A DNA stretch of 64,000 nucleotides from an uncultured Actinomycetota bacterium (GTDB taxonomy: Bacteria > Actinomycetota > Actinomycetes > Propionibacteriales > Nocardioidaceae), in NCBI GenBank assembly GCA_963812055.1, contig CAWEUA010000017.1:16253-80252 (forward strand), written 5' to 3'. The notes beneath the pieces were generated by a model, which saw only the letters and a list, made by a program, of their open reading frames with translations, did no database searches and had not been told where the DNA came from. Within the stretch, counting starts at the first letter, position 1. Every line of letters starts with the position of its first letter. Of this stretch, positions 4,642 to 61,823 are shown one piece after another. The position numbers and the translations under genes were made by a program.

Positions 4642-4655
4642 GAGCTTCCCGGCAG

Positions 4656-5840: not shown

Positions 5841-5843
5841 GCG

Positions 5844-6585: not shown

Positions 6586-6598
6586 CCGCCCCGCAGGC

Positions 6599-12740: not shown

Positions 12741-12749
12741 CGGACAGGC

Positions 12750-33753: not shown

Positions 33754-34532
33754 GTCCGCGCGCGACCCGCCGGCGCGACGTACGCCCGCCGAACCCGCAC
33801 CCGTCCGGCACGCGACCGCCCGACATCCCGCGGGACCTGGTGCCCCGACACATCGCCATCACCATGGACGGCAACGGACGCTGGGCCAAGGCGCGCGGGC
33901 TGCCCCGGACGGAGGGGCACACGATGGGCGAGGCTGCCCTCTTCGACGTCGTCGAGGGCGCCATCGAGATCGGCGTCAAGGCCATCTCGGCCTACGCGTT
34001 CTCGACCGAGAACTGGCGGCGCTCGCCCGAGGAGGTCCGCTTCCTGATGGGCTTCAACCGCGACGTCATCCGGCGACGTCGCGACGAGATGCACGAGATG
34101 GGCGTGCGGGTCACCTGGTCCGGCCGGGCGCCACGCCTGTGGAGGTCGGTGATCAAGGAGCTCCAGGTCGCCGAGGAGCTGACCCGCGGCAACGACGTGC
34201 TGACCCTCAACATGTGCGTGAACTACGGCGGCCGAGCGGAGGTGGCGGACACCGCGCGGGCCATCGCGCGCGAGGTCGCCGCGGGGCGGCTCGACCCGGA
34301 GAAGGTCGACGAGAAGGCGTTCGCACGTCATCTCTATGTGCCCGACCTGGGCGAGGCCGACATGGTCTGGCGGACCTCGGGCGAGCACCGGCTGTCGAAC
34401 TTCATGCTGTGGCAGGCGGCGTACGCCGAGCTGGTGTTCACCGACATCCTCTGGCCGGACGTCGACCGGCTCGCCTTGTGGAGGGCGATCGAGCTCTACG
34501 CTCAGCGTGACCGGCGGTTCGGCAAGGCCTGA
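33750..34532 (+). CDS. uppS: Isoprenyl transferase (undecaprenyl/decaprenyl diphosphate synthase)
   Basis: [48 protein letters not shown]. Confidence 0.93.
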
Positions 34533-34577
34533 GCATCGGCCAAGGGCGGGGGACGGATCCATGAGGCGAGGCCGATC

Positions 34578-40094: not shown

Positions 40095-40499
40095 CTATCG
40101 GCAGTCGGCGCAGGTGCCGACGATCTCGAGCGTGTGGGACAGGTCCGAGAAGCCGTGCGCGTCCGCGATCGCGGACGTCCACCGCTCGACCGCAGGCCCC
40201 TCGACCTCGACCGTCGCCCCGCACGACCGGCACACCAGATGGTGGTGGTGCGTGTCGGAGCAGCGTCGGTAGATCGCCTCGCCGTCCTCGCGGCGGAGGA
40301 CGTCGACGAGCCCGTGGTCGGCGTACAACGCGAGGGTGCGGTAGACCGTGGCCAAGCCGATGCCGGAGCCGCGCGAGGAGAGCAGCTCGTGGACCTCCTG
40401 CGCGGAGCGGAAGTCGTCGACACCGTCGAGCGCGTCGAGCACCGCCTGGCGCTGGGGAGTCGAGCGCGGACCGGGCCCTACCGGCTCAGTGCTCGTCAT
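40095..40499 (-). CDS. zur: Fur-family transcriptional regulator, most likely Zur
   Basis: TPQRQAV, SAQEVH, GLATVYRTL, HHHHLVCRSC, GTCADC; last gene of the zinc ABC operon. Confidence 0.88.
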   Translation of the reverse strand: MTSTEPVGPGPRSTPQRQAVLDALDGVDDFRSAQEVHELLSSRGSGIGLATVYRTLALYADHGLVDVLRREDGEAIYRRCSDTHHHHLVCRSCGATVEVEGPAVERWTSAIADAHGFSDLSHTLEIVGTCADCR

Positions 40500-41487
40500 A
40501 GTGCTGCCCCTCTCCGGTGACGTGGACCGCGTGGCGGTGGCCGTCGTGGACGTAGTCGACATGGTCGCCGTGCTCGATCGCGAGGTGGCCACACCCCGCC
40601 CCGTGGACGTGGCGATGGCGCTCGTCCGCCTCTTCGTGCAGCGGCAGCGCATCGGCGTCGTACGGGACCTGGGCGCGACGTCGGCGGTCGAGGACCATGC
40701 CGACGGGCGCGGTCGCGACGAACCCGGCCAGCGCGAACAGCACGATCGTGGCGCCCGGCGGGAGGTTGGCGTAGGCCGAGATGAGCACGCCGCCGAGGGA
40801 TGCCACGAGGCCGCCGACCATCGCGAGGAGCATCGTCGAGCGGAAGCTGCGGGTGAACTGCTGCGACGTCGCCACCGGGATGATCATCAGGGCGCTGACC
40901 AGCAGGAGGCCGACCGTGCGCATGGCGACGCTCACCGTCACCGCCGCGAGCACCGAGACCAGGGTGTTGTAGAACCACACGGGTACGCCGCTGGCGCGCG
41001 CGAAGTCCTCGTCGTACGACACCGCGAAGAGCTGCGGCATCAGCGCGAGGCAGACCACGATCACGATGCCGGCGAGCACGACCGAGACGACCACGTCGTC
41101 GTACGAGATCGTGGTGATCGAGCCGAACAGGTAGGCCTGGAGCGCGAAGGCACCGTTCCCGGCCAGCTGCACCAGGACGAGACCGCCGGCGATGCCGCCG
41201 TAGAAGAGCAGCGCGAGGGCGAGGTCGCCGGTTGCCTTGCCGGACGTGCGGATCAGCTCGATCGCGAGCGCGCCGAGCACCGCGACCACGACGGCGGTGA
41301 ACGTCGGCGACGTGCCGGTGAGCAGGCCGAGCGCGACGCCGGTGACCGTGATGTGGCCGATGCCGTCACCCAGCAGGGAGAGCCGGCGCTGGACGAGGTA
41401 GGTGCCGATGCCGGGGGCCGCCAGGCCCGTCACCGCGGCGGCGACGACAGCGCGGATCATGAACGGCGCCAGCAGCAGGTCCCACAT
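40486..41487 (-). CDS. znuB: Metal (zinc) ABC transporter permease with His-rich C-terminal tail
   Basis: RRLSLLGDGIGH, YLFGSI, VGLLLVSALMIIP; tail RHRHVHGAGCGH...HGDHVDYVHDGHRH. Confidence 0.9.
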   Translation of the reverse strand: MWDLLLAPFMIRAVVAAAVTGLAAPGIGTYLVQRRLSLLGDGIGHITVTGVALGLLTGTSPTFTAVVVAVLGALAIELIRTSGKATGDLALALLFYGGIAGGLVLVQLAGNGAFALQAYLFGSITTISYDDVVVSVVLAGIVIVVCLALMPQLFAVSYDEDFARASGVPVWFYNTLVSVLAAVTVSVAMRTVGLLLVSALMIIPVATSQQFTRSFRSTMLLAMVGGLVASLGGVLISAYANLPPGATIVLFALAGFVATAPVGMVLDRRRRAQVPYDADALPLHEEADERHRHVHGAGCGHLAIEHGDHVDYVHDGHRHAVHVTGEGQHYDEH

Positions 41488-42257
41488 CAGCGGTCTCCTT
41501 CCAGCGGTGCCTTCATCGGGGGCAGCAGTCCGTAGACGTCGTCGTCGTGGTGGTGGTGCGCGTGCGCGGCTCCCTCTGCCAGCTGGTCGGGAGGTCCGTC
41601 GTAGGTGATCCGGCCCTCCCGGAGAGCGATGACCCGGTCGATCAGGGGAGCGAACGGGCCGAGCTCGTGGAGTACGACGACGATGCTGGCGCCGGCGTCG
41701 GCCCGGCCGCCCAGCGTCTCGGCGATGGCCAGCTGGCTGGCGTGGTCGACGCCGGCGTTCGGCTCGTCGAGGAGGAGCAGGTCGGGCTCGCCGGCGAGAG
41801 TGCGTGCGACCAGGACCCGCTGCTGCTGTCCGCCCGACAGGGTCGCGACCGTGTGGCCCGCGCGGCCACCGAGCCCCACCAGGTCCACGGCGGCGTCGAC
41901 GAGGTCGTGCTCGTGCCGGGTCATCGGGAGGAACGGACGCCGCCGGGCGATGCGTCCGCTGGCGACGACCTCGCGGACGGTGGCGGGCACGCCCGTGCCG
42001 AGGTTGGAGCGCTGCGGGACGTAGCCGATGCGCTGCCAGTCGCGGAACCGGGGGAGCGGCGTACCGAAGAGCGAGACGGTGCCGGTGCTGACCGGGTTGA
42101 GCCCGACGAGGGCCTTGAGCAGGGTGGACTTGCCCGAGCCGTTGGCCCCGAGGACGGCCACCACCTGGCCGGTGTCGACCTCGAAGGTCACGTCCCGCAC
42201 GATCGGGCGCCCGTCGAGCACGACGCCGACCTGGTCGAGGGAGAGGAGAGCGGTCAC
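41487..42257 (-). CDS. znuC: Metal ABC transporter ATP-binding protein
   Basis: GANGSGKST, IGYVPQR, LSGGQQQR, LLLDEP, VLHE. Confidence 0.9.
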   Translation of the reverse strand: MTALLSLDQVGVVLDGRPIVRDVTFEVDTGQVVAVLGANGSGKSTLLKALVGLNPVSTGTVSLFGTPLPRFRDWQRIGYVPQRSNLGTGVPATVREVVASGRIARRRPFLPMTRHEHDLVDAAVDLVGLGGRAGHTVATLSGGQQQRVLVARTLAGEPDLLLLDEPNAGVDHASQLAIAETLGGRADAGASIVVVLHELGPFAPLIDRVIALREGRITYDGPPDQLAEGAAHAHHHHDDDVYGLLPPMKAPLEGDR

Positions 42258-43153
42258 GTGCAGTCGCCTGCTTTCGCGAGCGCGGCCAGGTTCTGCCGCA
42301 TCAGGGTGAGGTACGTCGCGTCCGGGTCATCCGAGCTGAGGCCCTCGATCGGGTCGAGCACCGCCGACCTGACACCGACGTCGCCGGCCAGGGACTCGGC
42401 CAGGTCGGGGCTGGCCAGGGTCTCGAAGAACACCGTGGTCACGCCCCGGTCCCGGATCAGGTTCGCGAGGTCGTGGAGGCGCTGCAGCGAGGGCTCGGCG
42501 TCGGGCTCGAGCCCGGCGATCGGGACGACGTCGACGCCGTACCGCCGGGCGAGGTACTCGAACGCGTCGTGGCTCACCACGATCGTGTCGACCCGGCAGT
42601 TCGCCAGGGTCCGGCGGTACTCCGCGTCCACGCGCCCGAGGTCGCGGACCAGGCGTCGGCCCTGCGCCCGGTAGTACGCCGCGTGCGCGGGGTCGGCCTC
42701 GGCCATCGTCGAGGCGAAGGCGCGGGTCGCCTCCGCCATCAGCGTGGGGTCCTGCCAGAAGTGCGGGTCCTTGTCGTCACTGGTGTGCTCGACGCCGGAA
42801 CCCGCCACCGGCGCGGCCAGCGGGACGACCGAGGTCACGTCGAGCGCACGGTCGGGGGAGTCGTTGTCCATCGCCTGGTCGATCGACGGCGCCACGCCGC
42901 GCTCGTAGAAGCCGACGCGGGCGTTGTCGATCTCGGCGACCTGGCGGACGGTGAGCTCGTACTCGTGCGGCTCGACACCCGGCGGGGTCAGGTCGACGAC
43001 GTCGTTGTAGCGACCGGCGACCCGCTCGGCGATGAAGTACAGCGGGTAGAACGACGCCACGACCGTGTGCTCACCGGACTTCGGGAGACGGCAGGCGGAG
43101 GTCAGGCCCGCCACCAGGCCCAGGGCCGTCAAGAGCAGCACCCACCGTCGCAT
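42254..43153 (-). CDS. znuA: Metal ABC transporter substrate-binding lipoprotein
   Basis: LTSAC lipobox; SFYPL, GVEPHEYE, DPHFWQDP, SHDAFEYL, FFETL, LDPIEGL. Confidence 0.9.
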   Translation of the reverse strand: MRRWVLLLTALGLVAGLTSACRLPKSGEHTVVASFYPLYFIAERVAGRYNDVVDLTPPGVEPHEYELTVRQVAEIDNARVGFYERGVAPSIDQAMDNDSPDRALDVTSVVPLAAPVAGSGVEHTSDDKDPHFWQDPTLMAEATRAFASTMAEADPAHAAYYRAQGRRLVRDLGRVDAEYRRTLANCRVDTIVVSHDAFEYLARRYGVDVVPIAGLEPDAEPSLQRLHDLANLIRDRGVTTVFFETLASPDLAESLAGDVGVRSAVLDPIEGLSSDDPDATYLTLMRQNLAALAKAGDCT

Positions 43154-43433: not shown

Positions 43434-44222
43434 TCAGTGGGTGATGAGCTCGAAGGACTGGCGGGCGAGGTCGGCGTCGGTGTCCCCGCCGGGCTCGGCG
43501 GTGTGGACGACGATCCGGGTGCGGTCGGCCCGGAACAGGTCGTGGGAGTGCTCGAACGGCGTGCCGTCGGCGCTCCGGGTGACCCGGGTGATCGACAGCA
43601 GCGGCTCCTCGCGGTCGATGCCCAGGATCGACGCGTCGTCGGGCGTGGCGCGCACCACCTCGATCCGCTCGGTGGTCTCCTGGGGCTCGATCGAGAAGTG
43701 CTCGTCCAGCAGCGCGTACAGCGAGCCGCCGAGCTGGTAGTCCAGCAGGCCGGGGAACAGCGCGACCGGCAGCCACGCGTGCTCCAGCGAGATCGGCGCG
43801 CCGTCGGCCAGCCGGATGCGGACGATCGCGAACACCAGCTGCCCGGGCTCGAGCTCGAGCGCCTCGCTGGTGGCCGCGGCCGCGGGCGCCGTCCCGGTGG
43901 AGAGGATCCGGGTACCCGCGGTGATGCCCTGCGCCGAGAGCAGCTCGGGGACGCTGCGGATGTGCGAGAGGTCGCGGTCGATCTTCTGGTGGCTGACGAA
44001 CGTCCCACCGCCGCGGCCGATCACCCGGCGTACGGCGCCCGCCTGCTCCATCATGCCCAGCGCCTGCCGCAGCGAGGAGCGGCTGACGCCGAGCTCCATC
44101 GCCAGGCTGCGCTCGGACCCGAGCCGCTGGCCCGGCTGCCAGCGCCCCTCGTCGATCCGGGCCTGGAGCTCGCGCTGGATGGACTCGGCCAGCGGGCCCT
44201 TGGCGTGCGAGATGCTCGTCAT
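43434..44222 (-). CDS. GntR (HutC/UTRA) family transcriptional regulator of the BMC locus
   Basis: GQRLGSERSLAMELGVSRSSLRQAL, GRGGGTFV, UTRA domain (RIRLADGAPISLE, FRADR). Confidence 0.9.
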   Translation of the reverse strand: MTSISHAKGPLAESIQRELQARIDEGRWQPGQRLGSERSLAMELGVSRSSLRQALGMMEQAGAVRRVIGRGGGTFVSHQKIDRDLSHIRSVPELLSAQGITAGTRILSTGTAPAAAATSEALELEPGQLVFAIVRIRLADGAPISLEHAWLPVALFPGLLDYQLGGSLYALLDEHFSIEPQETTERIEVVRATPDDASILGIDREEPLLSITRVTRSADGTPFEHSHDLFRADRTRIVVHTAEPGGDTDADLARQSFELITH

Positions 44223-44276
44223 GTCAGCGCCATTCTGTCGTCAGCACGTCACCCTCGGGGCCAGATCACGAGGACA

Positions 44277-45044
44277 TCACGAGGACATCGCGTCGAGCGA
44301 CTCGGGCAGCACCTGACCGCCGTCCACGGCGATGGCCTGCCCGGTCACGTACGCCGCCTCGTCCGTGGCGAGGAACAGGCAGACGTTGGCGATGTCGTCG
44401 ACGGTGCCGAGCTTGCCGGCGGGGATCGAGGCGGCCATCGAGCTCTGGTACTCCTCGCCGAGCTCGACGAGTCCCTCGGTGAGGATGTTGCCGGGCAGGA
44501 CGGCGTTGACCGTGATGTCCTTCCGGGCGAGCTCGACGGCCGCGGTCCGCATGAAGCCGAGCTGGCCGGCCTTGCTCGCGCCGTAGTGGGCCCAGCCGGG
44601 GAAGCCCGTGATCGGTCCGGTGATCGACGAGGTCAGGATCACCCGGCCGTGTCCCGACGCCTCGAGCGCCGGCAGGCAGGCGATCACCGAGAGCATGTTG
44701 CCCTTGAGGTTCGTGCCCAGCACCTGGTCGATGTCCGCGGACGACATCTCGGCGAGCTTCACGTCGGGGAAGATGCCGGCGTTCGCGCAGAGCACGTCGA
44801 TGCCGCCGTGGCGTTCGACGGCCGCGGCGGCCATCGCCGCGCAGGCGTCGGGGTCGACGACGTCGGCCGAGAACGCCGAGGCACCGTGGCCGAGCTCGTT
44901 CGCCGTCGCCGTCGCCGCGTCGCCGTCGCGACCGACGACGAGGACCTTCGCGCCGGCACGGGCGAAGCCCGCGGCGATGCCCTTGCCGATGCCCTTGCTG
45001 GCACCGGTGACGACCACCGACCGCCCCTCGAGCGATGTGAACAT
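44277..45044 (-). CDS. SDR oxidoreductase; 1-amino-2-propanol (amino-alcohol) dehydrogenase of RMM-type BMC loci
   Basis: [75 protein letters not shown]; closely resembles my recollection of the Rhodococcus/Mycobacterium amino-alcohol dehydrogenases. Confidence 0.9.
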
Positions 45045-45066
45045 CCGATCCTCCATTCGTCCCACG

Positions 45067-46071
45067 TCAGGCGTGGCTCGACAGATACTCCTCCGCCAGG
45101 TGGCAGGTGCCTACGGCGTACGTGGGGGCGAGCTCCTGGGCGACGTCGACGTCGGCGTGCGAGCCGATCCACGCCAGGAGCAGCAGCCGGCGGAACATCA
45201 CGAACGTGCGCAGCTCGGCCTCGTCCTCGGCGGGCAGCGCGGCGACCCGGCGGTAGCCCTCGACCCACTCCTCGGTCGCGGCCGGCACGTCGGGATGGTC
45301 CTCGATGAAGCTGACCGCCGCGCCGAAGTCGTAGAGGAACCAGCCGAAGCCGCAGTCGTCGAAGTCGATCACCGCGGTCGGCGTGCCCGGGCTCTCCAGC
45401 AGGTTGGCCAGCCGGAGGTCGGCATGGATCAGGCCCCAGCGCTCCTGCCCCTGTCCGTACGCCGCGAGCCGGTCTCGGAGCGTCTCGTCGAGGCGGGTGA
45501 GCACCGGCGACGTGTCCGCGTCCACGCCTGGAGCGTCCTGCCACCGGCCCCAGCGCGCGATGCTGCCGAACGCCTCGTCGTACCCCCACGAGAAGCGGCG
45601 GAACCCGGCCGGTGGCTGCCAGGCACGCGCGTGGTCGTGCAGGCGGGCCGTGAGCTCGCCGAGCTCGGCGAAGTTGGCCACCAGCGAGTCCTCGGCGGGG
45701 GAGGCGCCGGGCAGCCACTCGAACATCACCGCCGAGCGTGGCGCCGTCTCGCCCTCGGGATCGGCAACCGTGAGCTCGCGCTCGCCGTCGCGGGCGGTGC
45801 GGATGGCGGGCGTCGTGATCACGCCGTCCTGCCGGAGCGCGTCGATCCAGGCCAGCTCGGAGCGGATCGCGCCGTCCGGGTGGTAGTCGAGCCGGTGCAC
45901 CCGCAGGGCGGCGGCCGTCCCGCCGTCGGGCGTCCGCACCGCGTACGTCGCGTTCTCGGACTGGTTGACCAGCTCGGCGGTCGTTCCCTCGGGCAGGTCG
46001 TACGACGCCAGCGCCTGCCGGGCGATGCGGTCGAGAGCGCTCGGCTCATGGGTGGAGGTGGACTCGCTCAC
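45067..46071 (-). CDS. APH/choline-kinase-fold phosphotransferase; amino-alcohol kinase of RMM-type loci
   Basis: [49 protein letters not shown]. Confidence 0.85.
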
Positions 46072-46078
46072 GGGAGGA

Positions 46079-46744
46079 TCATCGCCCTTCGATCGACCCG
46101 AGCACCTCATCGATCGCCGCGAGAGCCGTCTCGATCGACCCGGAGTCACCGGCCAGGTAGAGCCGGCCCGCCGCACCGATCATCGAGACGTCGACCAGGG
46201 TCAGCCCCGGGGCGGCCTTCTCCGCCTCGTTGGCCGCGACCGCCGCGAACAGCGCGGGCGTCATCTCGCACACCAGCAGCGTCTGCCCCGGCATCACCAT
46301 CGAGGCCTGGCGCGTGCGGTTGACGATGATCGCGTGCTGGTCCGAGATGTCCTCGATGACGTCGCGGTAGAGCACCTGCGGCCGCAGCTGGTCGCCGGCC
46401 TTGGCACCGATCCCGGCCAGGATCGCCTCGCCCGCCCGGGCGACGTCGGCGGCATCCGCCGCATGCACCTCGAGCACGCCGAACTGGCGCTCCACGAACA
46501 GGATCCCCGGGTCGACGTCGGGGACCGCCTTGAGCGCGAGGTCGGTGACCCGCTCGATGGCGAGACCGGGCGCGACCTCGATGATCAGCGCGTGCTGACC
46601 GGCGAACGGCGGGTAGCCGCGGGCCCGCGTCGGGGTCCCGAGGTACGCCGCGAACTGGGGCTGCAGGTCGTGGATCGGCAGGTAGACCCGCAGATCCACG
46701 CCCAGCGCCCGCGTCGCGGCCGCCTCGGTGTCCAGGTGGGACAC
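46079..46744 (-). CDS. BMC-T tandem-domain microcompartment shell protein
   Basis: LRVYLPIHDLQPQFAAYL, IEVAPGLAIE, VERQFGVLE, AANEAEKAA, GAAGRLYLAG. Confidence 0.88.
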   Translation of the reverse strand: MSHLDTEAAATRALGVDLRVYLPIHDLQPQFAAYLGTPTRARGYPPFAGQHALIIEVAPGLAIERVTDLALKAVPDVDPGILFVERQFGVLEVHAADAADVARAGEAILAGIGAKAGDQLRPQVLYRDVIEDISDQHAIIVNRTRQASMVMPGQTLLVCEMTPALFAAVAANEAEKAAPGLTLVDVSMIGAAGRLYLAGDSGSIETALAAIDEVLGSIEGR

Positions 46745-46745
46745 G

Positions 46746-47027
46746 TCAGTCGGCGGCGATCGTGAAGTGTCTGCCGACCTCGACGTGCGGCCGCGGGATC
46801 ACGTGGACGGAGACCAGCTCGCCGACCTGCCCGGCCGCCTCCGACCCGGCCTCGGTGGCGGCCTTCACCGCACCGACGTCTCCGATGATGGTGACGGCGA
46901 CGAGTCCGTCGCCGACCTCCTCGCGGCCGACGATGGTGACGTTGGCGGCCTTGACCATGGCGTCCGCGGCCGCGAGCGCAGCGACGTACCCCTTGGTCTC
47001 GATCATGCCGATGGCGTTGTTGGCCAC
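46746..47027 (-). CDS. BMC-H hexameric shell protein (PduA/EutM-like)
   Basis: [42 protein letters not shown]. Confidence 0.96.
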
Positions 47028-47037
47028 GGTTCTCTCC

Positions 47038-47340
47038 TTACCTCTCCTGACCCGGCTCTGCCGGGTCGGGGCTCGTGGTGCTGCTGTCGGACTGGCTGGA
47101 CTGGGGGTCGACGGAGCCGATGATCAGCGCGTCGACCGGTGGATGGCTCTCGCCGAACCAGGCGGAGGCGACGCTGCCCTGCACGACCAGGACCTCCTCA
47201 CCCACCCCGCTGCCGAGCACGTCGAAGGCGACGAACCTGGCCTCGGAGTCGTGGGCGCGGACCTCGAGGAACGCGCCGTGGGGGATCTCCTTCAGCCGAC
47301 GCGACGCCCAGATGGTGCCGGTCACGGTGGCGCGGATCAT
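47038..47340 (-). CDS. BMC-P pentameric vertex protein (EutN/CcmL family)
   Basis: [41 protein letters not shown]. Confidence 0.9.
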
Positions 47341-47810
47341 CGCGTCTCCCTTCCCTGTACGGATGACGGCGTGGTGCGGTCGGTCCGCTCGATGACGACG
47401 CCGAGGGCCCGCGCCCGGTCGCGGGCCAGCGGCGTCACCACGGCTCGTGCGCCGATCCGCAACGTCCGCTGCTCACGGGCCGCTCGCTGGATGATGCGCT
47501 CGGTGACGGCGCCGCGCTCGACGTCGATCGGTCCGGGACCTGTGGGGGCGCCGGTGCCCGCGTCACCGGCCAGCCGGAACCGGATGCGCCCGGCGCGGAG
47601 GTCGGCGGCGCGGTCGGGGTTCTCGGCGAGGTTGAGCACCTGGGTCACGAGGTCGGCCAGGTCGTGGTCGTCGCGGACGCGCACCCGGCGTACGTCGTCT
47701 CCGGGCGGCGCGGCGGCGGTCTCCGGGTCGGAGGCTCCGCGCGGCAGCACCTCCTGCAGGACCTCGCGCACCATCTGCCGCAGGGCCGCGGTCGTGTCGG
47801 CATCGGTCAT
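47337..47810 (-). CDS. BMC-associated hypothetical protein with N-terminal encapsulation-peptide-like helix
   Basis: TTAALRQMVREVLQEVL at the N-terminus; C-terminal AVTERII...AVVTPLARDRARALGVVI; ATGA overlaps on both sides. Confidence 0.75.
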   Translation of the reverse strand: MTDADTTAALRQMVREVLQEVLPRGASDPETAAAPPGDDVRRVRVRDDHDLADLVTQVLNLAENPDRAADLRAGRIRFRLAGDAGTGAPTGPGPIDVERGAVTERIIQRAAREQRTLRIGARAVVTPLARDRARALGVVIERTDRTTPSSVQGRETR

Positions 47811-48448
47811 CCGACGACCTCCGCGAGCGAGGTGAGCGCGGACTCGGCGGCCTCGGCCGCGTGCCGCACGTCGGCCTCCTGGCCGCTCAGGTAGACCCGC
47901 CCGGTGGCGCCCACCATCCGGTAGTCGATGACCTTGATCCCGGGGCCGACGGCCTTCTCGGCCTCGTTCGTCGCCAGGATCGCGTACGACGCCGGCTGCA
48001 TCTCGAGCACGAACACCGACTCGCCCGGCAGGGCCATCGAGCCGAGCTTGTTGCGGTTGACCAGGAACGCGTGCTGGCTGTCGATACGGCTCATGATCGT
48101 GCTCGCCAGGACCTGGGGCCGGGTGGCCGACGACGCGCTCGTGTCGAGGTGCTCCAGCACGGCGCCGGCCGCCGCACGCACCGCGTCGTTGGGGCCGTGG
48201 AACTCCAGGTAGCCGAACTGGCGCTCGACGATCAGCATCCCCGACGAGATCCGCGCGTGCTTGAGCGCGACGTCGGTCAGCGGCTCGATGTCGAGCCCGG
48301 GGGAGACCTCGATGATCTGGGCCGCGTCGCCGGCGCGAGGCAGCGTGCCGCGGATCCAGGAGCCCAGGTAGCACATCGTCTGCGGCTGGAGCCGGTCGAG
48401 ATGGATGAAGCTGCGGAGCTGGGTGCTGGGTTCAGCCACGGTGCCCAC
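47807..48448 (-). CDS. Second BMC-T tandem-domain shell protein
   Basis: LRSFIHLDRLQPQ, IEVSPGLDIE, VERQFGYLEFH, ATNEAEKA, GATGRVYLSG; paralogous to 46079-46744. Confidence 0.88.
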   Translation of the reverse strand: MGTVAEPSTQLRSFIHLDRLQPQTMCYLGSWIRGTLPRAGDAAQIIEVSPGLDIEPLTDVALKHARISSGMLIVERQFGYLEFHGPNDAVRAAAGAVLEHLDTSASSATRPQVLASTIMSRIDSQHAFLVNRNKLGSMALPGESVFVLEMQPASYAILATNEAEKAVGPGIKVIDYRMVGATGRVYLSGQEADVRHAAEAAESALTSLAEVVG

Positions 48449-50033
48449 CGCCGATCAGGTCGTGGAGCTCTTCGACGATGATCCGGCGCAGCTCCTCGCG
48501 GAGGTCGTCGTCGTTCGTCGTCGCGGCCGCGCGCTCGCGGCGTGCCGGCTCGCGGGCAGCGCCGGCATCGTCGCGGGCATTGGACGGGGTCGGGTACGCC
48601 GGCACCGGGCCCGAGGCGGCGCGCCACGGCGTGAGCCCGGCGAAGTCGCCCATCGGCACCGACGCGTCGGCGTTGTGGGCCAGCCGGACCCAGTTGACCA
48701 GGTGGTCCGGTCGGAGGTTCTCGCCGACGGAGGACCCACCGGCGTACCCGGTGCCGATGGTCATCGTCGGCGCCAGGTGGGTCTCGATGCCGGCGCCCCC
48801 GAGGCTGTTGCCGACGTTCACCGAGACCCGGAGCACGTTGCAGGCGACGCCGAACTCGAGGATGGTCGCCGGGTCGGTCGAGTGCACGGCCGCGGAGTGG
48901 CCGGCGCCGCTGATGCGCAGCACGGCCCGCGCCGCCTTGATGCCCGCGGCGGCGCTGGGCACGCGGACCAGCCCCAGGAGCGGCGTCAGCTTCTCGCGGG
49001 CGAGCGGCTCCTCGGGCACCACCTGCTCGAACTCCGCGACCAGCACCTTCGTGTTGTGCGGCACCTGGACGCCCGCCTTCTCCGCCAACCAGGTGGCGGA
49101 CTTGCCCACGACCGCCGGGTCGAACCGGTCGTGGGGGAAGACGAGGTCGCGGACCAACACGGCCTGCTCGGCGTCGAGCAGGTAGGCGCCCGCGGACCGC
49201 ATCGCCCGGGTGAACGCATCGGCCACCCGGTCCTCGACGATCACCACCGACTCGTTCGTGCACAGGCACGAGTTGTCGAACGCCTTGGACTCGACGATCC
49301 GCCGAGCGGCGGCGTTGAGGTCGGCGGTGGCGTCGACGAGCACCGGCACGTTGCCGGGACCGACGCCGAGGGCCGGGGTACCGGAGCGGTACGCCGCGCG
49401 CACGACGGCGTTGCCGCCGGTCGCGACGATCGCACTGGTGCGTGTGTCGGTCATGAGGGCGTCGATCAGGGGGATCGTCGGTTCGCTCACGACCTGCACC
49501 ACTCCGGCTGGCGCCCCGGCTGCCTCGGCGGCGGCGCCCAGGACCCGAGACGCATCAGCACAGACGCGCTTCGCCATCGGGTGCGGACTCACCACGACGG
49601 CGTTGCGGGTCATCAGGCTGAGCAGGATCTTGAAGTAGACGGTGGCCACCGGGTTGGTCGACGGCGTGAGCGCCAGCACGACCCCGGCGGGGCGAGGCAC
49701 CTCGACGATCTTGAGCTCGTCGTCGATGCGGGGCGTGACGAAGTCGGCGCCGGCGTAGAAGTCGAGCACGCCGCGCGAGCACGCCTCGTTCTTGAGCCGT
49801 TTGTGCTCGACGACGCCGAAGCCGGTCTCGGCGACGGCGCGCTCGGCGTACTCCTGCGCGTGGTCCACCGCCGCGGCCACGACGGCCTCGAGGATCCGGT
49901 CCACCGCGGCCTTGTCGAGCATCCGGAACGCGCGGGAGGCCCACTCGGCACGCTCGAGCATCGCCCGCGCCTGCGGTACGTCGGTCGGCTCGGGCTCGAG
50001 GTACGTCGAGCTCAGGGATGTCGTCTCGCTCAT
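48432..50033 (-). CDS. CoA-acylating aldehyde dehydrogenase (EutE/PduP-like) with C-terminal encapsulation peptide
   Basis: PAGVVLALTPSTNP, ATGG, GVGPGNVP, SKAFDNSCLCTNE (catalytic Cys), EKLTP, GHSAAVH; C-terminal DDLREELRRIIVEELHDLIG. Confidence 0.92.
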   Translation of the reverse strand: MSETTSLSSTYLEPEPTDVPQARAMLERAEWASRAFRMLDKAAVDRILEAVVAAAVDHAQEYAERAVAETGFGVVEHKRLKNEACSRGVLDFYAGADFVTPRIDDELKIVEVPRPAGVVLALTPSTNPVATVYFKILLSLMTRNAVVVSPHPMAKRVCADASRVLGAAAEAAGAPAGVVQVVSEPTIPLIDALMTDTRTSAIVATGGNAVVRAAYRSGTPALGVGPGNVPVLVDATADLNAAARRIVESKAFDNSCLCTNESVVIVEDRVADAFTRAMRSAGAYLLDAEQAVLVRDLVFPHDRFDPAVVGKSATWLAEKAGVQVPHNTKVLVAEFEQVVPEEPLAREKLTPLLGLVRVPSAAAGIKAARAVLRISGAGHSAAVHSTDPATILEFGVACNVLRVSVNVGNSLGGAGIETHLAPTMTIGTGYAGGSSVGENLRPDHLVNWVRLAHNADASVPMGDFAGLTPWRAASGPVPAYPTPSNARDDAGAAREPARRERAAATTNDDDLREELRRIIVEELHDLIGGGHRG

Positions 50034-51310
50034 GCCGCTCCCCGGGCGGTGGAGTCGGTCCGGGCGCTGGCGATCCCGACCGCCACCCGGTCGAGGAGCT
50101 CCTCGGCGAGGTCGGGCGTGAGCAGGAGGCCGGGCTTGAACTGCAGCACCTGCGGGTCGAGGGTCGAGAAGATCGCCCACACACCGTGCTCGTACAGGTG
50201 CCGGCTCACCAGCATCGCGCCCCGCGGATGGTCGAACTCGAGCCCGATCACGAGGCCGTCCTGCCGGATTCCGGTGAACCAGCCCGGGTTGTCGTCGCGG
50301 ATCTGGTCGAGCCCCTCACGCAGCAGGTCCGCGAGGTAGTGCACCATCGAACGGGTCTCGGGGCGGCTGCAGATCTCGAGGGTCTTCATCGCGGCGATGC
50401 AGCCGACCTCGGCCCCGCCGAACGTCGACATGTGGGCGAACCCGTCCTCGGTGAGCCAGCCCGCGCACCGCTCGCTGACCAGCACGGCCGCGATCGGGTA
50501 CATGCCGCCCGACAGCCCCTTGCCGGTGACGAGGATGTCCGGCTCGATGCCGTGCTTGGAGATGCACCAGAGCTCGCCGGTGCGCATCAACCCGGTCTGC
50601 ACCTCGTCGGCGACGTACAGCGCGTCGTACCTCTCGCAGAGCTGCTTGACCGTCTCCAGGTAGCCGGGGTCGGGGAGCGGGAAGCCGTACGTCGCGGGGA
50701 TCGACTCCATCAGCACGGCGGCGACGTCGCGACCGCGCAGCGCATCCTCCATCGCTTCGAGGTCGTTGAACGGGACCTGGGCGACCTCGTCCGGACGGTC
50801 GGCGAGGAACAGCTTCGCGAAGCGGTCGTCGCCGGCCGTGACGGCCAGCCCGGTGTGACCGTGGTAGGCCTTCACGATCGAGACGATCTTGCGCTTGCCG
50901 GTGGCGTGCCGGGCCGTCTTGATGGCGATGTCGATGGCCTCGCCCCCGCCGCTGGCGTAGATCACCTTGGTGAGCCCAGGAGGTGCCGACGCGATCAGCG
51001 CCTCCGCGAGGGCGGTCCGCGCCAGCGACGGGAAGTGGTGGTTGCCGATGTCGAAGCGGTGCATCGCCTGCGCGACGGCGGCGACGACCTCGCGGTTGCG
51101 GTGGCCCACGTTGTAGGTGCCGCCGTTGAGATGGGCGTCGATCAGGCGGCGACCCGACATGTCCCAGATCAGGTAGCCCTCACGCCGGTCGATCACCAGG
51201 GGGGTGCCCGAGTCGATCCAGAACTGGGTCTTGCCCGGGTTCCAGAACTCCTTGGCCTTGTCGAGGACCTCCTGCTTGTCCTCGAAGGAGAAGGCCCCGT
51301 AGTCGGTCAC
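50030..51310 (-). CDS. Class III PLP-dependent aminotransferase-fold enzyme (candidate amino-alcohol-phosphate phospho-lyase)
   Basis: SGGGEA, AYHGHT, ESIPATYG, DEVQTG, TGKGLSGG (PLP Lys), STFGG; first gene of the BMC operon. Confidence 0.9.
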   Translation of the reverse strand: MTDYGAFSFEDKQEVLDKAKEFWNPGKTQFWIDSGTPLVIDRREGYLIWDMSGRRLIDAHLNGGTYNVGHRNREVVAAVAQAMHRFDIGNHHFPSLARTALAEALIASAPPGLTKVIYASGGGEAIDIAIKTARHATGKRKIVSIVKAYHGHTGLAVTAGDDRFAKLFLADRPDEVAQVPFNDLEAMEDALRGRDVAAVLMESIPATYGFPLPDPGYLETVKQLCERYDALYVADEVQTGLMRTGELWCISKHGIEPDILVTGKGLSGGMYPIAAVLVSERCAGWLTEDGFAHMSTFGGAEVGCIAAMKTLEICSRPETRSMVHYLADLLREGLDQIRDDNPGWFTGIRQDGLVIGLEFDHPRGAMLVSRHLYEHGVWAIFSTLDPQVLQFKPGLLLTPDLAEELLDRVAVGIASARTDSTARGAA

Positions 51311-51336
51311 CGCGCTCCTTCCGCCCGCTCCGTAAA

Positions 51337-51396
51337 TGGTTCAACCAAGAGTGCATACCTTTTAGGTCGGTGGTGTCAATGGTGTGTTCGCGAACA
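51337..51396. promoter_or_regulatory. AT-rich divergent control region with candidate operators
   Basis: TGGT-TCA-ACCA (51337-51347), ACCT-TTT-AGGT (51357-51367), minus-strand TTGACA (51379-51374), perfect palindrome TGTTCGCGAACA (51385-51396). Confidence 0.55.
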
Positions 51397-51565
51397 AACC
51401 TGAAACAAACAAAATTGATCGCAGATCTTGTGCGGCGTCGCTCGGCGGTGCGACTCTCGTGCCGCTCGGGGTGATCCAGGACACATCGGTACGGACGCGT
51501 CCGGCTCTCGCTCCAGGGGTTCATGGAGTGGGTGCGAGCGGTCCACAGAGAAGGGCGACCTCTCG

Positions 51566-53164
51566 ATGACGACCCAAGACACCACAGGCAGCGAGTTCGT
51601 CGAGGTGCCGGTCGACTCCGGCCACAAGCTCAAGACCGGGGCCATCGGCATGGTCGCGGTGCTGTTCATGGCGACCGCGAACGCGGCGCCGATCACCGCG
51701 ATGAGCGCGAACACGCCGATCGCGGTCGGCTACGGCAACGGCCTGGCCGCGCCCGGCGGCTTCCTCTTCGCGACCATCGTGCTGACCCTGTTCGCGGTCG
51801 GCTTCGTCGCGATGGCGCGCCACGTCACCACCACAGGTGCGTTCTACGGCTTCATCTCCCAGGGACTGGGTCAGGTCTGGGGCATGGCGGCGGGTCTGGT
51901 CGCCACCTTGGCGTACGTCGTGTTCGAGGGCTCGCTGATCGGCGTGTTCAGCTACTTCACCCAGTCGACGCTGGACTCGTGGTGGGGCATCAAGCCGAAC
52001 TGGTTCCTGATCGCCGTCATCGGCATCGTGCTGATCGCCCTGTTCGGCCACTACGACATCAACATCGCGGCCGCCTTCCTCGGCGTCTGTCTCGTCGCCG
52101 AGGTGCTCCTGCTGGCCGCGATGGCGTTCACGGTGCTCTTCCACGGCGGTGGGGACGACGGCCTGATCCCCGGTGCGATCAACCCGCTCAACGCGTTCAA
52201 GTCACTCGTCGAAGGCGGCAACATGCCCGGCTCGTCGGTGTCCCTCGGGGCCTCGATCGACGGCACCCAGGTCGCCGCCGGCTCCGCAGCGATCGGCGTG
52301 TTCTTCGCCTTCTGGTCGTGGGTCGGCTTCGAGACCACGGCGGTCTACGGCGAGGAGTCGCGCGACCCGAAGCGGATCGTGCCCCCGGCGACCATGATCG
52401 CGGTCGTCGGCCTGGGCATCTTCTACACCTTCGTGTCGTGGATGGCGGTCTCCGGCACGGGCGCCAAGGAGTCGATCACGACCTCGGCCGGCAGCAACCC
52501 CGTCGACCTGATGAAGGGCACCTTCGAGCAGTACCTCGGCCACCCGTCGACGTACCTCTTCGACTTCCTGATCGTGACCGGCTCCTTCGCCTGCGCGTTG
52601 GCCTTCCACAACGCGGCGTCGCGCTACATCTACGCGATCGGGCGTGAGATCCCCCGCACCCAGAACAACCTGGGTTCGACGCACAAGCACCACGGGTCGC
52701 CGCACATCGCGTCGGCCACCCAGTCGGCGATCACCCTCGTGATCACGATCCTGTTCTGGGCGAAGATGGGCAACGACGTCGTCCAGGCGGCCTACATCTA
52801 CGAGTACGGCGTGCTGGCGGTGCTCGGGACGATGGCGATCCTGCTGGTGCAGGCGCTCTGCTCGATCGCGGTGATCTGGTACTTCCAGGTGAAGAAGGTC
52901 CACCACGGCAACTTCTGGACCACGGGCGTGATCCCGGCGCTCGGCGCGATCGGGATGCTCTACGTCTGCTACCTGCTGTTCAGCAACCTGTCCTTCGCCG
53001 GCGGTGCCGCGTCGGGGTCGCTGCTCTACAAGCTGATCCCCTACATCGTCGGGGCGACCTTCGTCATCGGGCTGCTCTTCATGTTCCTGCTCAAGCAGCG
53101 CGACCCGGAGCAGTACGCACGCATCGGCCGCACCGTGCTGGAGGACGCCCACGAGCGGGACTGA
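51566..53164 (+). CDS. APC family amino acid/amine permease
   Basis: About 12 TM segments; MATANAAP, GAFYGFISQGLG, WSWVGFETTAVYGEE, HGSPHIA. Confidence 0.9.
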   Translation: MTTQDTTGSEFVEVPVDSGHKLKTGAIGMVAVLFMATANAAPITAMSANTPIAVGYGNGLAAPGGFLFATIVLTLFAVGFVAMARHVTTTGAFYGFISQGLGQVWGMAAGLVATLAYVVFEGSLIGVFSYFTQSTLDSWWGIKPNWFLIAVIGIVLIALFGHYDINIAAAFLGVCLVAEVLLLAAMAFTVLFHGGGDDGLIPGAINPLNAFKSLVEGGNMPGSSVSLGASIDGTQVAAGSAAIGVFFAFWSWVGFETTAVYGEESRDPKRIVPPATMIAVVGLGIFYTFVSWMAVSGTGAKESITTSAGSNPVDLMKGTFEQYLGHPSTYLFDFLIVTGSFACALAFHNAASRYIYAIGREIPRTQNNLGSTHKHHGSPHIASATQSAITLVITILFWAKMGNDVVQAAYIYEYGVLAVLGTMAILLVQALCSIAVIWYFQVKKVHHGNFWTTGVIPALGAIGMLYVCYLLFSNLSFAGGAASGSLLYKLIPYIVGATFVIGLLFMFLLKQRDPEQYARIGRTVLEDAHERD

Positions 53165-53167
53165 CGG

Positions 53168-54208
53168 GTGACCACTGCTCCCGGGGCAGCGCCCATCCGC
53201 TACGAGCCCGATCCGGACGGCGATCCGGCCCGGCTCACCTACACGTTCGGCGGCGTGGAGCCGGTGGCGTCACTCGCACCCGGCTCCGCGCTCTCGACGT
53301 GGACCTTCGACTGTTTCGGTGGTCGGGTGCGCTCGGCGGCGGACGTGGTCTCGGAGGTCTGCGACCCGGCGTACCTCAACCCGCAGACGGGTCCGTTCTT
53401 CATCGAGGGCGCCGAGCCGGGCGACACGTTGGCGGTGCACTTCGTCTCGATCGAGCCGCGCGAGGCCTGGGGCGTCTCGGCCAACGTGCCGTTCTTCGGG
53501 TCGCTCACGGCCACCCCGACCACCGCGATGCTCCACCCGGCACTGCAGGAGCGCACCTGGTACTACGAGCTGGACCTCGAGGACCGGTTGGTGCGGTACG
53601 AAGCCGTCGACTCGACGTTCGCCCTCGACCTCCCGCTGGACCCGATGCACGGCACGGTCGGGGTCGCGCCGCCGCTGGGCGAGGCACGGTCGTCGCTGAC
53701 GCCGGGCTCCTGGGGCGGGAACATGGACACGCCCGAGATGCGCACGGGCGTCACCTGCTACCTGGGGGTGAACGTCCCGGGCGCCATGTTCAGCCTGGGC
53801 GACGGCCACGCCCGCCAGGGTGAGGGGGAGACCTGCGGCGTCGCCGTCGAGACGGCGATGGACACGGTCGTGATCGTCGACCTGGTGAAGGGGGTGCCCA
53901 CCGTGTGGCCGCGGATCGAGTCCGAGACCCACATCATCTCGACGGGCTCGACGAAGCCGCTCGAGGACGCCTTCCGGATCGCGCACGCCGACATGACCGG
54001 ATGGGTCGGTGCGGAGCTCGGCCTCTCACCGCTCGACGCGTACCAGCTGGTCACCCAGGTCGTGGAGTCGCCGGTGGCCAACGTGGTCGACACCGTCTAC
54101 ACGATGACCGCCAAGGTCGCGAAGACCTACCTGCCGGGAGTCCTGGCGTACGACGGCATCCACGAGCGCCTCCGTGCCCAGGCCGCCGCTCTCCGGGAGC
54201 TGGCGTGA
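53168..54208 (+). CDS. Acetamidase/formamidase family protein
   Basis: NPQTGPFFIEGAEPGDTL, PMHGTVGVAP, WGGNMD, LGDGHARQGEGE-CGVAVE. Confidence 0.88.
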   Translation: MTTAPGAAPIRYEPDPDGDPARLTYTFGGVEPVASLAPGSALSTWTFDCFGGRVRSAADVVSEVCDPAYLNPQTGPFFIEGAEPGDTLAVHFVSIEPREAWGVSANVPFFGSLTATPTTAMLHPALQERTWYYELDLEDRLVRYEAVDSTFALDLPLDPMHGTVGVAPPLGEARSSLTPGSWGGNMDTPEMRTGVTCYLGVNVPGAMFSLGDGHARQGEGETCGVAVETAMDTVVIVDLVKGVPTVWPRIESETHIISTGSTKPLEDAFRIAHADMTGWVGAELGLSPLDAYQLVTQVVESPVANVVDTVYTMTAKVAKTYLPGVLAYDGIHERLRAQAAALRELA

Positions 54209-54630
54209 AGGTCGACCTCGACCTCGCCGAGCAGATGGCGCGCGCCGCGTGTGCGGCCGCGGCCGACGAGCAGTGTCTGGTGTCCGCTGCCGTGGTCGAT
54301 GCCGGCGGCCACCTGGTCGCGTTCCGGAGGATGGACGGCGCCGAGTTCGCCGGGGCCACGGTCGCGGTCGACAAGGCGTACACGGCGGCGGGCAACCGCA
54401 TCGCGACCCTGGCCCTGCGCGACCTGGTGGGCCCCGGGCTCGACCTGACCGGGTACTACGCGGCGTCCGGTGGGCGGTTCATCGCGTTCGGCGGCGGCGT
54501 CCCGTTGTGGTACGACGGGCTCGTGGCGGGTGCGGTCGGTGTCAGCGGAGCGAGCGGCGAGCAGGACCATGCGTTCGCCTCGGCCGCGGCGTCGCTCTGG
54601 GCGGACGCAGGGGGTGCGCTCGATGCCTGA
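54205..54630 (+). CDS. GlcG/HbpS-family heme-binding protein (PduO C-terminal-domain-like)
   Basis: AVVDAGGHLVAFRRMDGA, AVDKAYTAA, FGGGVPL, GAVGVSGASGEQD. Confidence 0.85.
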   Translation: MKVDLDLAEQMARAACAAAADEQCLVSAAVVDAGGHLVAFRRMDGAEFAGATVAVDKAYTAAGNRIATLALRDLVGPGLDLTGYYAASGGRFIAFGGGVPLWYDGLVAGAVGVSGASGEQDHAFASAAASLWADAGGALDA

Positions 54631-56872: not shown

Positions 56873-57237
56873 GCCCGGCGACCGGCAAGGCCTGGTCGGG
56901 GCGCCCGGCGTCCGAGCTGAGCGTCGACGGGGTCGTCGGGGGCGAGCTGGGTCCCGACGACATCCGGATCAGCCCCGAGACCCTGCGGCACCAGGCCGAC
57001 GTGGCCCGGGCCCACGCGAACCCCCAGCTGGCGGCGAACTTCGAGCGCGCGGCCGAGCTGACGGCGTTCGACGAGTCGGACATCCTCGCGCTCTACGAGC
57101 TGCTCCGGCCGGGTCGTTCGACGGGCGACCAGCTGCGGGCGAAGGCGGACGAGCTCGAGGCCCGCGAGGCGCCGATCTGTGCGGCGTTCGTGCGCGAGGC
57201 CGCGGCGGTGTACGAGCGGACCGGCCTGACGGCGTGA
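56869..57237 (+). CDS. pduE: Diol/glycerol dehydratase small (gamma) subunit
   Basis: DIRISPETLRHQA, LAANFERAAELT, LYELLRPGRST, FVREAAAVY. Confidence 0.88.
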   Translation: MSPATGKAWSGRPASELSVDGVVGGELGPDDIRISPETLRHQADVARAHANPQLAANFERAAELTAFDESDILALYELLRPGRSTGDQLRAKADELEAREAPICAAFVREAAAVYERTGLTA

Positions 57238-57255
57238 CACCACCATGACCCGGCC

Positions 57256-58839: not shown

Positions 58840-58906
58840 CACGCCGTCCAGAGCTGTTCCACGTCGTTGCGTCGGCGTGGAAGAGCTGTGGACAGCGTGT
58901 TACAAG
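58833..58906. terminator. Long imperfect hairpin between convergent reactivase and MocR genes
   Basis: CTTGTAACACGC (58833-58844) / GCGTGTTACAAG (58895-58906) with inner TTCCACG/CGTGGAA pairing. Confidence 0.55.
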
Positions 58907-58907
58907 G

Positions 58908-60242: not shown

Positions 60243-60272
60243 GTTTTGTAACATAGCAATGAAAGCATTGCT
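60241..60272. promoter_or_regulatory. Candidate MocR operator palindromes in the divergent promoter
   Basis: ATGTT-TTGT-AACAT (60241-60254) and AGCAATG-AAAG-CATTGCT (60255-60272). Confidence 0.5.
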
Positions 60273-60303
60273 CCAGGTAGGGGTAGGTCGATATTTTCAT
60301 CCC

Positions 60304-61794: not shown

Positions 61795-61823
61795 CGACCG
61801 GCTCGACCCACGAAGGAGTACCC

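Follow-up and report, generated by a model that had tools for sequence, protein, structure and literature searches.

A soil Nocardioides locus of the RMM1/AAUM1 microcompartment type, probably working from aminoacetone and aminopropanol to propionyl-CoA

What kind of organelle would a run of ten minus-strand genes in an uncultured actinomycete build, and which compounds would that organelle process? The genes lie at 43434-51310 of the window, by which we mean the whole 64,000-nucleotide stretch of contig CAWEUA010000017.1 (assembly GCA_963812055.1) that was analysed; all coordinates are in its numbering unless another contig or locus is named. An earlier note, made from the letters of the same DNA, had read these genes as a complete bacterial microcompartment (BMC) operon for amino-alcohol catabolism that mirrors the RMM (Rhodococcus and Mycobacterium microcompartment) locus of Mycobacterium smegmatis. 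We find that, with a probability of roughly 0.75, this is a metabolosome locus of the type RMM1/AAUM1 (AAUM, aminoacetone utilization microcompartment) that works by a scheme leading from aminoacetone and aminopropanol to propionyl-CoA, in a soil or rhizosphere Nocardioides. The genes of the operon, from first to last, are given here with the E values of their supporting matches.

50030-51310, minus strand: class-III aminotransferase-fold pyridoxal phosphate (PLP) enzyme, candidate 1-amino-2-propanol O-phosphate phospho-lyase, first operon gene (Pfam Aminotran_3 5e-69)
48432-50033, minus strand: CoA-acylating aldehyde dehydrogenase (AldDH), probable propionaldehyde dehydrogenase (NCBIfam AdhE N-domain 7.5e-128, EutE-type 5.3e-116)
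48435-48512, minus strand: DDDLREELRRIIVEELHDLIGG, encapsulation peptide at the AldDH C-terminus, preceded by a variable linker (conserved motif)
47807-48448, minus strand: BMC-T(dp), MSM0275 type, adjoining the AldDH (CcmP-like, 8e-57)
47337-47810, minus strand: conserved 157-aa protein, proposed shell-cargo linker (no family)
47038-47340, minus strand: BMC-P, pentamer of the vertex (Pfam EutN_CcmL 8.4e-18; best match in the Protein Data Bank (PDB) 5L37, MSM0273, 5.6e-31)
46746-47027, minus strand: BMC-H, hexamer (Pfam BMC 7.8e-27; best PDB match 5L38, MSM0272, 2.4e-41)
46079-46744, minus strand: BMC-T(dp), double-stacking trimer, MSM0271 type, adjoining the kinase (NCBIfam CcmP 1.9e-59)
45067-46071 (or start at 46110), minus strand: APH-fold kinase, ortholog of (S)-1-amino-2-propanol kinase (Pfam APH 4e-28)
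44277-45044, minus strand: short-chain dehydrogenase/reductase (SDR), ortholog of NADP-dependent (S)-1-amino-2-propanol dehydrogenase (aminoacetone reductase) (PDB 6CI8/6CI9 1.4e-97)
43434-44222, minus strand: GntR/HutC-type regulator (GntR helix-turn-helix plus UTRA), last operon gene (Pfam UTRA 2.9e-41, GntR 5.1e-16)

The shell proteins identify the type. Profile searches, which the earlier note had proposed as a check on the shell class, returned the RMM1/AAUM1 shell set and no more: a single BMC-H, a single BMC-P and a pair of different BMC-T(dp) proteins. Each of them matches its RMM-type counterpart among MSM0271, MSM0272, MSM0273 and MSM0275 best, in the same positional order. For the BMC-T beside the kinase, the best PDB match is 5SUH (MSM0271) at 1.4e-91, versus 4.7e-43 for MSM0275; for the one beside the AldDH it is 5L39 (MSM0275) at 9.2e-88, versus 1.5e-41 for MSM0271. 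The two share 44% identity, and each is thus best matched by a different M. smegmatis paralog. The operon's BMC-H gene is the one match to PF00936 above cut-off in the whole genome. Beyond the stretch that aligns to the MSM0273 chain, the last 20 or so residues of the BMC-P protein (47038-47100) form a tail rich in Ser/Thr/Pro/Gln.

The dehydrogenase and kinase steps of the scheme can be predicted by orthology to characterised enzymes. The window SDR is 63% identical to the aminopropanol dehydrogenase 6CI8. Substrate recognition in the M. smegmatis dehydrogenase reportedly involves Thr145, Trp154, Phe95, Leu195 and Glu251, and in our alignment, which allows for a 3-residue tag offset of the 6CI8 chain, these five columns are identical in the window SDR and 6CI8. 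A Gly-Arg pair following strand beta-2 is typical of NADP(H)-preferring SDRs, and the window SDR keeps it; for the Rhodococcus ortholog, NADP+ dependence is cited in PMC6787980. The kinase has 6EF6 as its best PDB match (1.6e-99, 53% identity), the next match standing at 2e-14. A distant paralog of the kinase (34% identity) is found on contig C5 at 12540-13418, with no class-III aminotransferase beside it. The AldDH carries the catalytic-cysteine motif FDNSCLC, and the enzyme set as a whole (class-III PLP protein, acylating AldDH, APH-fold kinase and SDR) is that of RMM1/AAUM1.

Gene order leads to the same classification. The sequence of regulator, SDR, kinase, BMC-T, BMC-H, BMC-P, 157-aa protein, BMC-T, AldDH, PLP enzyme and divergent permease is the M. 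smegmatis order, and the claim that the operon mirrors that locus holds gene for gene, since all shell proteins, the SDR and the kinase have their positional counterparts as best solved structures. The RMM1/AAUM1 locus of M. smegmatis mc2 155 (MSM0268-0277; Axen 2014; Mallette & Kimber 2017, 2018; Sutter 2021) has the same ten genes, the same shell set, a GntR regulator and an APC permease. It differs in its host, the window belonging to a Nocardioides (Propionibacteriales), and in its surroundings: we saw no Abhydrolase_3 hydrolases beside the window core, and the window has a divergent arm encoding an amidase, an HbpS-like protein, a fused B12 dehydratase and a reactivase. By the current catalogue the locus classifies as RMM1/AAUM1, in the dehydratase-arm layout that Axen 2014 named RMM2.

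The order and strand of the ten genes that the earlier note had given, and their freedom from lesions, are borne out by the Pfam and NCBIfam assignments and by the intact frames. Ten consecutive minus-strand open reading frames without internal stops run from 43434 to 51310, each with a third-position GC content of 0.91-0.98 (the window as a whole is GC-rich, at about 0.71). Four-nucleotide ATGA/GTGA overlaps occur at the PLP/AldDH, BMC-T/157-aa and 157-aa/BMC-P junctions, the other gaps being a few bases, and the ten genes are one translationally coupled operon. The AldDH start is taken as the ATG at 50033, which overlaps the stop of the PLP gene, instead of the open-reading-frame start at 50180; the kinase start is ambiguous between 46071 and 46110.

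To examine how widely the locus is kept, we searched one genome per species with the BMC-T protein, and compared all window proteins by tblastn with 80 fetched loci. At least 440 relatives were confirmed among the 599 pattern matches listed. The best of the matches listed are two Nocardioides metagenome-assembled genomes (MAGs), at 90-91% identity over the BMC-T protein, and the label "Nocardioides-like" was therefore sound. The ten-gene order is kept in most of the 80 loci, which come from Nocardioidaceae, Streptosporangiaceae, Nanopelagicales, Kineosporiaceae, Gordonia and others, and the GntR/UTRA regulator is kept in nearly all related loci at 47-91% identity. Sequencing runs that match the sequence are metagenomic DNA only, from soil and rhizosphere. 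Supplementary Data 2 of Sutter 2021 gives RMM1/AAUM1 as 140 loci in Actinobacteria and Proteobacteria, with one BMC-H, one BMC-P and two BMC-T(dp); in the catalogue entry RMM1 is usually the sole BMC type of a genome (three co-occurrences with MIC1) and no satellite loci are recorded, and Nocardioides Root79 and Pimelobacter ATCC 6946 stand under RMM1 in the trees. The locus is a further example of this known, widespread system.

The amino-alcohol interpretation is likewise supported by orthology to the M. smegmatis shell proteins, kinase and SDR. PMC8156839 credits Mallette & Kimber 2018 with the model in which aminoacetone is converted via (S)-1-amino-2-propanol, its O-phosphate and propionaldehyde to propionyl-CoA. 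Applied to the window, the permease would import aminoacetone, 1-amino-2-propanol or a conjugate of either; the NADP(H)-type SDR would reduce aminoacetone to (S)-1-amino-2-propanol, which the APH-fold kinase would phosphorylate with ATP; the PLP enzyme would eliminate phosphate and ammonia to give propionaldehyde; and the CoA-acylating AldDH would trap the aldehyde as propionyl-CoA. The last two steps are predicted to take place inside a shell of one BMC-H, one BMC-P and two double-stacked BMC-T proteins, with the AldDH targeted by its C-terminal encapsulation peptide and the 157-aa protein acting as a cargo-shell linker resembling PduM and the N-terminus of EutQ. Propionyl-CoA would leave the shell as the thioester and enter the methylmalonyl-CoA pathway, CoA and NAD+ would cross the shell, presumably via the BMC-T proteins, and the GntR/UTRA protein would control the divergent promoters in response to a putative inducer.

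How cargo might be held in the shell is suggested by two helices. Among the proteins of the operon, helices resembling encapsulation peptides were recognised at the C-terminus of the AldDH and at the N-terminus of the 157-aa protein only. Across related loci the AldDH ends in the conserved pattern LREEIRRL(V/I)(V/I)EEL..(L/I)..G, and the 157-aa protein starts with ALRQMVREVLQEVL, an amphipathic helix conserved as LRxLVREVLREVL. The latter protein had been labelled hypothetical, and it does lack a Pfam family; the label missed that it is conserved and probably a structural component. Its gene fills the unnamed 0274 slot of the M. smegmatis order, and 78 of 80 related loci have it in this place, flanked by BMC-P and BMC-T. 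A single-sequence search of the species genomes with the protein gave no confirmable relatives; relatives of its locus were found with the BMC-T protein as anchor. After the N-terminal helix come a Pro/Ala linker, a small middle domain and a C-terminal module of about 50 aa. In an AlphaFold2 model from a 38-sequence alignment (mean pLDDT 83), residues 4-21 form a helix, residues 39-80 the middle domain (beta-alpha-alpha-beta) and residues 95-142 the C-terminal module (beta-alpha-beta-alpha-beta); a Foldseek search of the PDB with this model found nothing below E 0.1.

The C-terminal module, with the consensus GAVTERxVxxAAxxGxRLVLGRRAVLTPLARDRARAxGVxIEKER, belongs to a family of 927 clusters at E<=1e-3 in a profile search of 1.84 billion protein representatives. 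It is C-terminal in nearly all of the best 150 matches, which comprise same-architecture members only. We aligned the module to residues 5-47 of E. coli EutQ with hhalign (score 28.5, E 1.4e-4, probability 53%). Of 1500 decoys, composition-matched stop-free six-frame fragments of the host genome, none scored above 23.6 against EutQ, and EutT scored 21.2; the EutQ side of the comparison is not diverse, as the search for homologues of its N-terminus gave near-identical E. coli sequences only. In single NCBIfam scans of the 38 family members, 31 match TIGR02536 "eut_hyp" at E<=1 (best 4.8e-4), 5 match PduM (best 0.015), and the 157-aa protein of the window matches EutQ positions 9-59 (E 0.053), all of these matches lying far below the curated cut-offs. 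EutQ residues 9-41 (H1/H2) bind the shell while H3/H4 bind encapsulation peptides of cargo, as was shown in 2025 (PMC12487888). The 157-aa protein may resemble the linkers of the EutQ-N/PduM/TIGR02536 kind in that its last 50 aa align weakly to EutQ 5-47, which holds the shell-binding helices H1/H2; it differs in having no cupin domain, in carrying the module at the C-terminus and not the N-terminus, and in its additional N-terminal helix resembling an encapsulation peptide. That it acts as the RMM shell-cargo linker is, in our reading, about as likely as not.

Another question is the fate of the product. PduL (PF06130) and Pta (PF01515) have no match in the whole assembly, which comprises 4.17 Mb in 25 contigs and is 92% complete. 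The earlier note had found no phosphotransacylase, acetate kinase or alcohol dehydrogenase in the window, and for the window's contig this holds for phosphotransacylase, acetate kinase and Fe-type alcohol dehydrogenase (the Zn-type alcohol dehydrogenase families were not searched), matches to the latter two lying on other contigs only. Within that scope, the lack of a phosphotransacylase and an alcohol dehydrogenase is the pattern of RMM1/AAUM1 and is shared with M. smegmatis. Despite the absence of Pta and PduL from the assembly, there is an acetate kinase gene on contig C15 at 33674-34591; its partner may be phosphoketolase, or a Pta inside the missing 8% of the genome. Methylmalonyl-CoA mutase has four matches in the genome and PrpD has none. 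The absence of PduL and Pta, together with the presence of the mutase, suggests that propionyl-CoA is probably exported as the thioester and assimilated via methylmalonyl-CoA; given such export, CoA and NAD(H) must cross the shell. The earlier note's remark that the window leaves the recycling of CoA and NAD unexplained describes a real gap, but one that is already published as a recognised puzzle of the RMM type (PMC4207490; PMC11626177): Axen 2014 remarked on the missing regeneration of NAD+ and CoA, and of a list of types that includes RMM/AAUM, a 2024 PNAS paper says that the regeneration of NAD+ "has yet to be determined".

Several points weigh against the proposed scheme. Its four enzymes need NADPH, ATP, PLP and NAD+/CoA without internal recycling, which conflicts with the standard metabolosome model (PMC4207490; PMC11626177). 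The assembly is 92% complete, and the 8% that it lacks might include a Pta or PduL. In the work of Mallette & Kimber 2017, both M. smegmatis BMC-T structures reportedly had closed pores. The PLP enzyme, which would make the aldehyde inside the shell, the kinase and the SDR have no recognisable encapsulation peptide, and the similarity of the 157-aa protein to EutQ is weak (hhalign probability 53%, NCBIfam E 5e-4 to 0.05). As for the PLP enzyme, the nearest solved structure is putrescine aminotransferase (1.5e-52), followed by ornithine and acetylornithine aminotransferases, and none of the documented phospho-lyases is among its top 60 solved-structure matches. As of 2021 no class-III lyase was documented other than ethanolamine-phosphate phospho-lyase, an enzyme closely related to it, and PbfA (PMC8154272). 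For the window's enzyme a phospho-lyase role is putative. Four alternatives were considered, the first of which is compatible with the aminoacetone scheme.

The operon does not stand by itself. The earlier frame of 43434-51310 is right for the ten-gene core; as the end of the functional locus 51310 is wrong, a divergent plus-strand arm (51566-58839) having been overlooked that departs from the BMC operon at a shared control region.

51311-51565, no strand: shared divergent control region, 255 bp, more AT-rich (sequence)
51566-53164, plus strand: APC-family amino-acid/amine permease, probable substrate importer (Pfam AA_permease_2 4.2e-20)
53168-54208, plus strand: FmdA/AmdA-family amidase-like protein (Pfam FmdA_AmdA 2e-23)
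54205-54630, plus strand: HbpS/GlcG-like (DUF336-type) small protein, its GTG start overlapping the amidase stop (Pfam HbpS-like 2.5e-32)
54623-56872, plus strand: B12-dependent diol/glycerol dehydratase, fused alpha and beta (Pfam Dehydratase_LU 3.7e-234, Dehydratase_MU 2.8e-25)
56869-57237, plus strand: dehydratase gamma (small) subunit, 122 aa (Pfam Dehydratase_SU 1.1e-33)
57256-58839, plus strand: diol dehydratase reactivase large subunit (Pfam DDR 4.1e-33, DDR_swiveling 4.8e-16)

Because of this arm the locus resembles RMM2 as first described. For Axen 2014, opposite-strand diol dehydratase genes are what sets RMM2 apart from RMM1, and in the window the genes running from permease to regulator keep the RMM1 synteny while the dehydratase genes (54623-58839) lie on the opposite strand. 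The label has since been reassigned, and the locus is RMM1 now: in the account of Sutter 2021, RMM2/AAUM2 denotes mainly proteobacterial loci (also Marinimicrobia) with a different gene order. We rejected that newer RMM2/AAUM2 for the window, whose order is that of M. smegmatis RMM1 and whose host is actinobacterial. The PDU system of Salmonella (PduCDE, PduP, PduL, PduQ) was considered as well. It too has a B12 diol dehydratase, an acylating propionaldehyde dehydrogenase bearing an encapsulation peptide, and propionaldehyde as the sequestered intermediate. The window differs in lacking PduL, PduQ and PduS/T, in having the dehydratase alpha and beta subunits fused, in BMC-T(dp) shell proteins that are not of the PduB or PduT types, and in a signature route via kinase and PLP lyase. 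PDU identity was rejected on the absence of PduL, the lack of N-terminal extensions on the dehydratase, and the best matches of the shell proteins, which are to RMM types.

Could the dehydratase feed the same organelle? In this dual arrangement, a B12 dehydratase of a clade with Asp at position 301 would turn a vicinal diol, which may be cationic or amino-substituted, into an aldehyde that the encapsulated AldDH would use too. We consider this a tentative possibility. Among 59 related loci with at least 6 kb of flank, 41 have a dehydratase within 10 kb, in at least three arrangements (divergent past the permease, directly downstream of the regulator, or convergent); in the window the two arms have a common divergent control region. 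The residues equivalent to Ser301 and Gln336 of the Klebsiella enzymes are Asp and Ala in the window dehydratase, and all 45 RMM-linked dehydratases have the Asp, 44 of them the Ala as well. The distinct Asp/Ala pocket suggests a substrate other than plain 1,2-propanediol. Against a second input stand the dehydratase subunits, none of which has an N-terminal extension or encapsulation peptide, and the many RMM1 loci that have no dehydratase within 10 kb, including Pimelobacter simplex and several Nocardioides isolates; the M. smegmatis locus is not known to have one either. Sutter 2021 judged dehydratase proximity unimportant, in a remark made about their RMM2. The strong linkage to a distinct dehydratase clade nevertheless argues against dismissing the enzyme as incidental.

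The history of the arm can be read from its closest relative among the matches listed, a Nocardioides MAG locus (L001) of about 87% nucleotide identity. L001 has no permease-amidase-dehydratase-reactivase block, yet two pieces of the reactivase gene survive in it, an internal one of 140 bp and the final 135 bp: L001 positions 6802-6940 correspond to window 57697-57836, and 4529-6810 to window 58704-60998. These remnants indicate that the arm was ancestral in the lineage and was deleted in L001, not inserted in the window, which also speaks for the dual arrangement. Beyond the reactivase, no gene for a reactivase small subunit follows. The permease is adjacent in 51 of the 59 loci and the amidase-like gene is present in 17 of them; a paralog of the latter (60% identity) lies on contig C14 at 240236-241225, with no class-III aminotransferase beside it.

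A second alternative concerns the placement of the enzymes of the aminoacetone scheme. Mallette & Kimber 2018 are said to have noted that the four enzymes use four non-overlapping cofactors, and that either the shell passes cofactors or only the lyase lies inside. As in the first of those two possibilities, all four might be encapsulated, and the two BMC-T(dp) proteins would then make the shell unusually permeable to ATP, NADP(H), NAD(H) and CoA; every locus has a pair of distinct BMC-T(dp) paralogs. We regard this as unlikely. Compared with their crystallised cores, the SDR and the kinase show no targeting extension, and paralogs in M. smegmatis outside the BMC reportedly do the same chemistry in the cytosol. 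The PLP enzyme has no extension relative to putrescine aminotransferase either.

The PLP enzyme itself raises the third alternative. In the transaminase route of Axen 2014, it would convert aminoacetone to methylglyoxal or aminopropanol to lactaldehyde, the AldDH would detoxify the product as an acyl-CoA, and a side role would be left for the kinase. Each of the nearest solved homologs is a transaminase with terminal amines as substrates, and NCBIfam leaves the function unassigned because the matches of the enzyme are all below equivalog cut-offs. We nevertheless hold this route to be very unlikely. It leaves no job for the kinase, a clear ortholog of the characterised aminopropanol kinase that is kept in every locus, and a lyase step is favoured because the kinase needs a consumer for its product. 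The catalytic Lys264 is invariant, and at the column of the Arg with which the nearest transaminases bind the carboxylate of the keto acid, every one of the 62 orthologs with a residue there has Gln (motif VLQ(Y/F)KPG). Other class-III paralogs of the same genome vary at that column too, and we rejected the lost Arg as proof of lyase function; it is suggestive only. The later literature took up the phospho-lyase route.

If the phospho-lyase assignment of the aminoacetone scheme is preferred, the ancestry of the enzyme needs comment. By its matches it lies closer to the transaminases of putrescine and ornithine than to the phospho-lyases known so far. With ETNPPL/AGXT2L1 and the bacterial A1RDF1 it shares the class-III fold and the proposed 1,2-elimination of phosphate from a kinase-made phosphorylated amino alcohol; it differs in having no specific kinship to them, both being absent from its top 60. 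This weakens membership of the ETNPPL family, not phospho-lyase function. If the enzyme is a lyase, the activity would have a separate origin inside the putrescine/ornithine aminotransferase branch. Elsewhere in the host genome we found no class-III paralog beside a kinase, a point in favour of the lyase. As for the last alternative, that the locus is a silent or decaying relic, the chance is negligible given intact frames, codon-position GC typical of expressed genes, translationally coupled starts and stops, and strong conservation across families.

For the aminoacetone scheme we can then sketch an "open-loop" RMM organelle, which we offer as a speculative elaboration. A 157-aa adaptor, with its helix resembling an encapsulation peptide and its PduM/EutQ-N-type module, would tie cargo to shell; acyl-CoA would be exported with no phosphotransacylase recycling; and the Asp301 B12 dehydratase would be a second feeder in most soil Actinomycetota, perhaps on an amino-substituted diol. 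The locus itself adds little to a catalogue in which RMM1/AAUM1 and its Nocardioides members are already listed and the cofactor puzzle is already recognised. The less ordinary aspects, all of them hypotheses, are the conserved linker-like protein, the close linkage to an Asp301 dehydratase clade and the lack of a phosphotransacylase in the whole assembly. The value of the locus is as a compact, lesion-free example in a genus whose relatives can be cultured (the same operon is found in Pimelobacter simplex ATCC 6946 and in several Nocardioides isolates), and it bears on a possible ETNPPL-independent origin of a phospho-lyase, on metabolosomes with no phosphotransacylase or NAD+ recycling, and on a conserved small protein as possible shell-cargo linker.

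The control region and the flanks gave some further observations. A 20-bp palindrome, GGTGTGTTCG/CGAACAAACC, at 51381-51400 in the shared control region is a candidate operator. Streptosporangiaceae loci have a different palindrome, of the type TTTGGTC..GACCAAA, upstream of the PLP gene, and we dropped the idea of a conserved GntR operator since no palindrome motif is common to the families. Downstream of the arm, 58908-63206 holds a MocR-type (GabR-like) regulator on the minus strand, divergent from two genes, one for an aldehyde dehydrogenase of non-BMC type (about 60322-61794) and one for another class-III aminotransferase (about 61800-63206). L001 has kept this block but not the dehydratase, and the block therefore looks like a separate amine-catabolic unit. 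At the other side, directly downstream of the regulator gene and on the same strand, a ZnuABC-type metal uptake operon (ZnuA, ABC ATPase and ABC-3 permease; 40486-43153) marks the end of the BMC locus.

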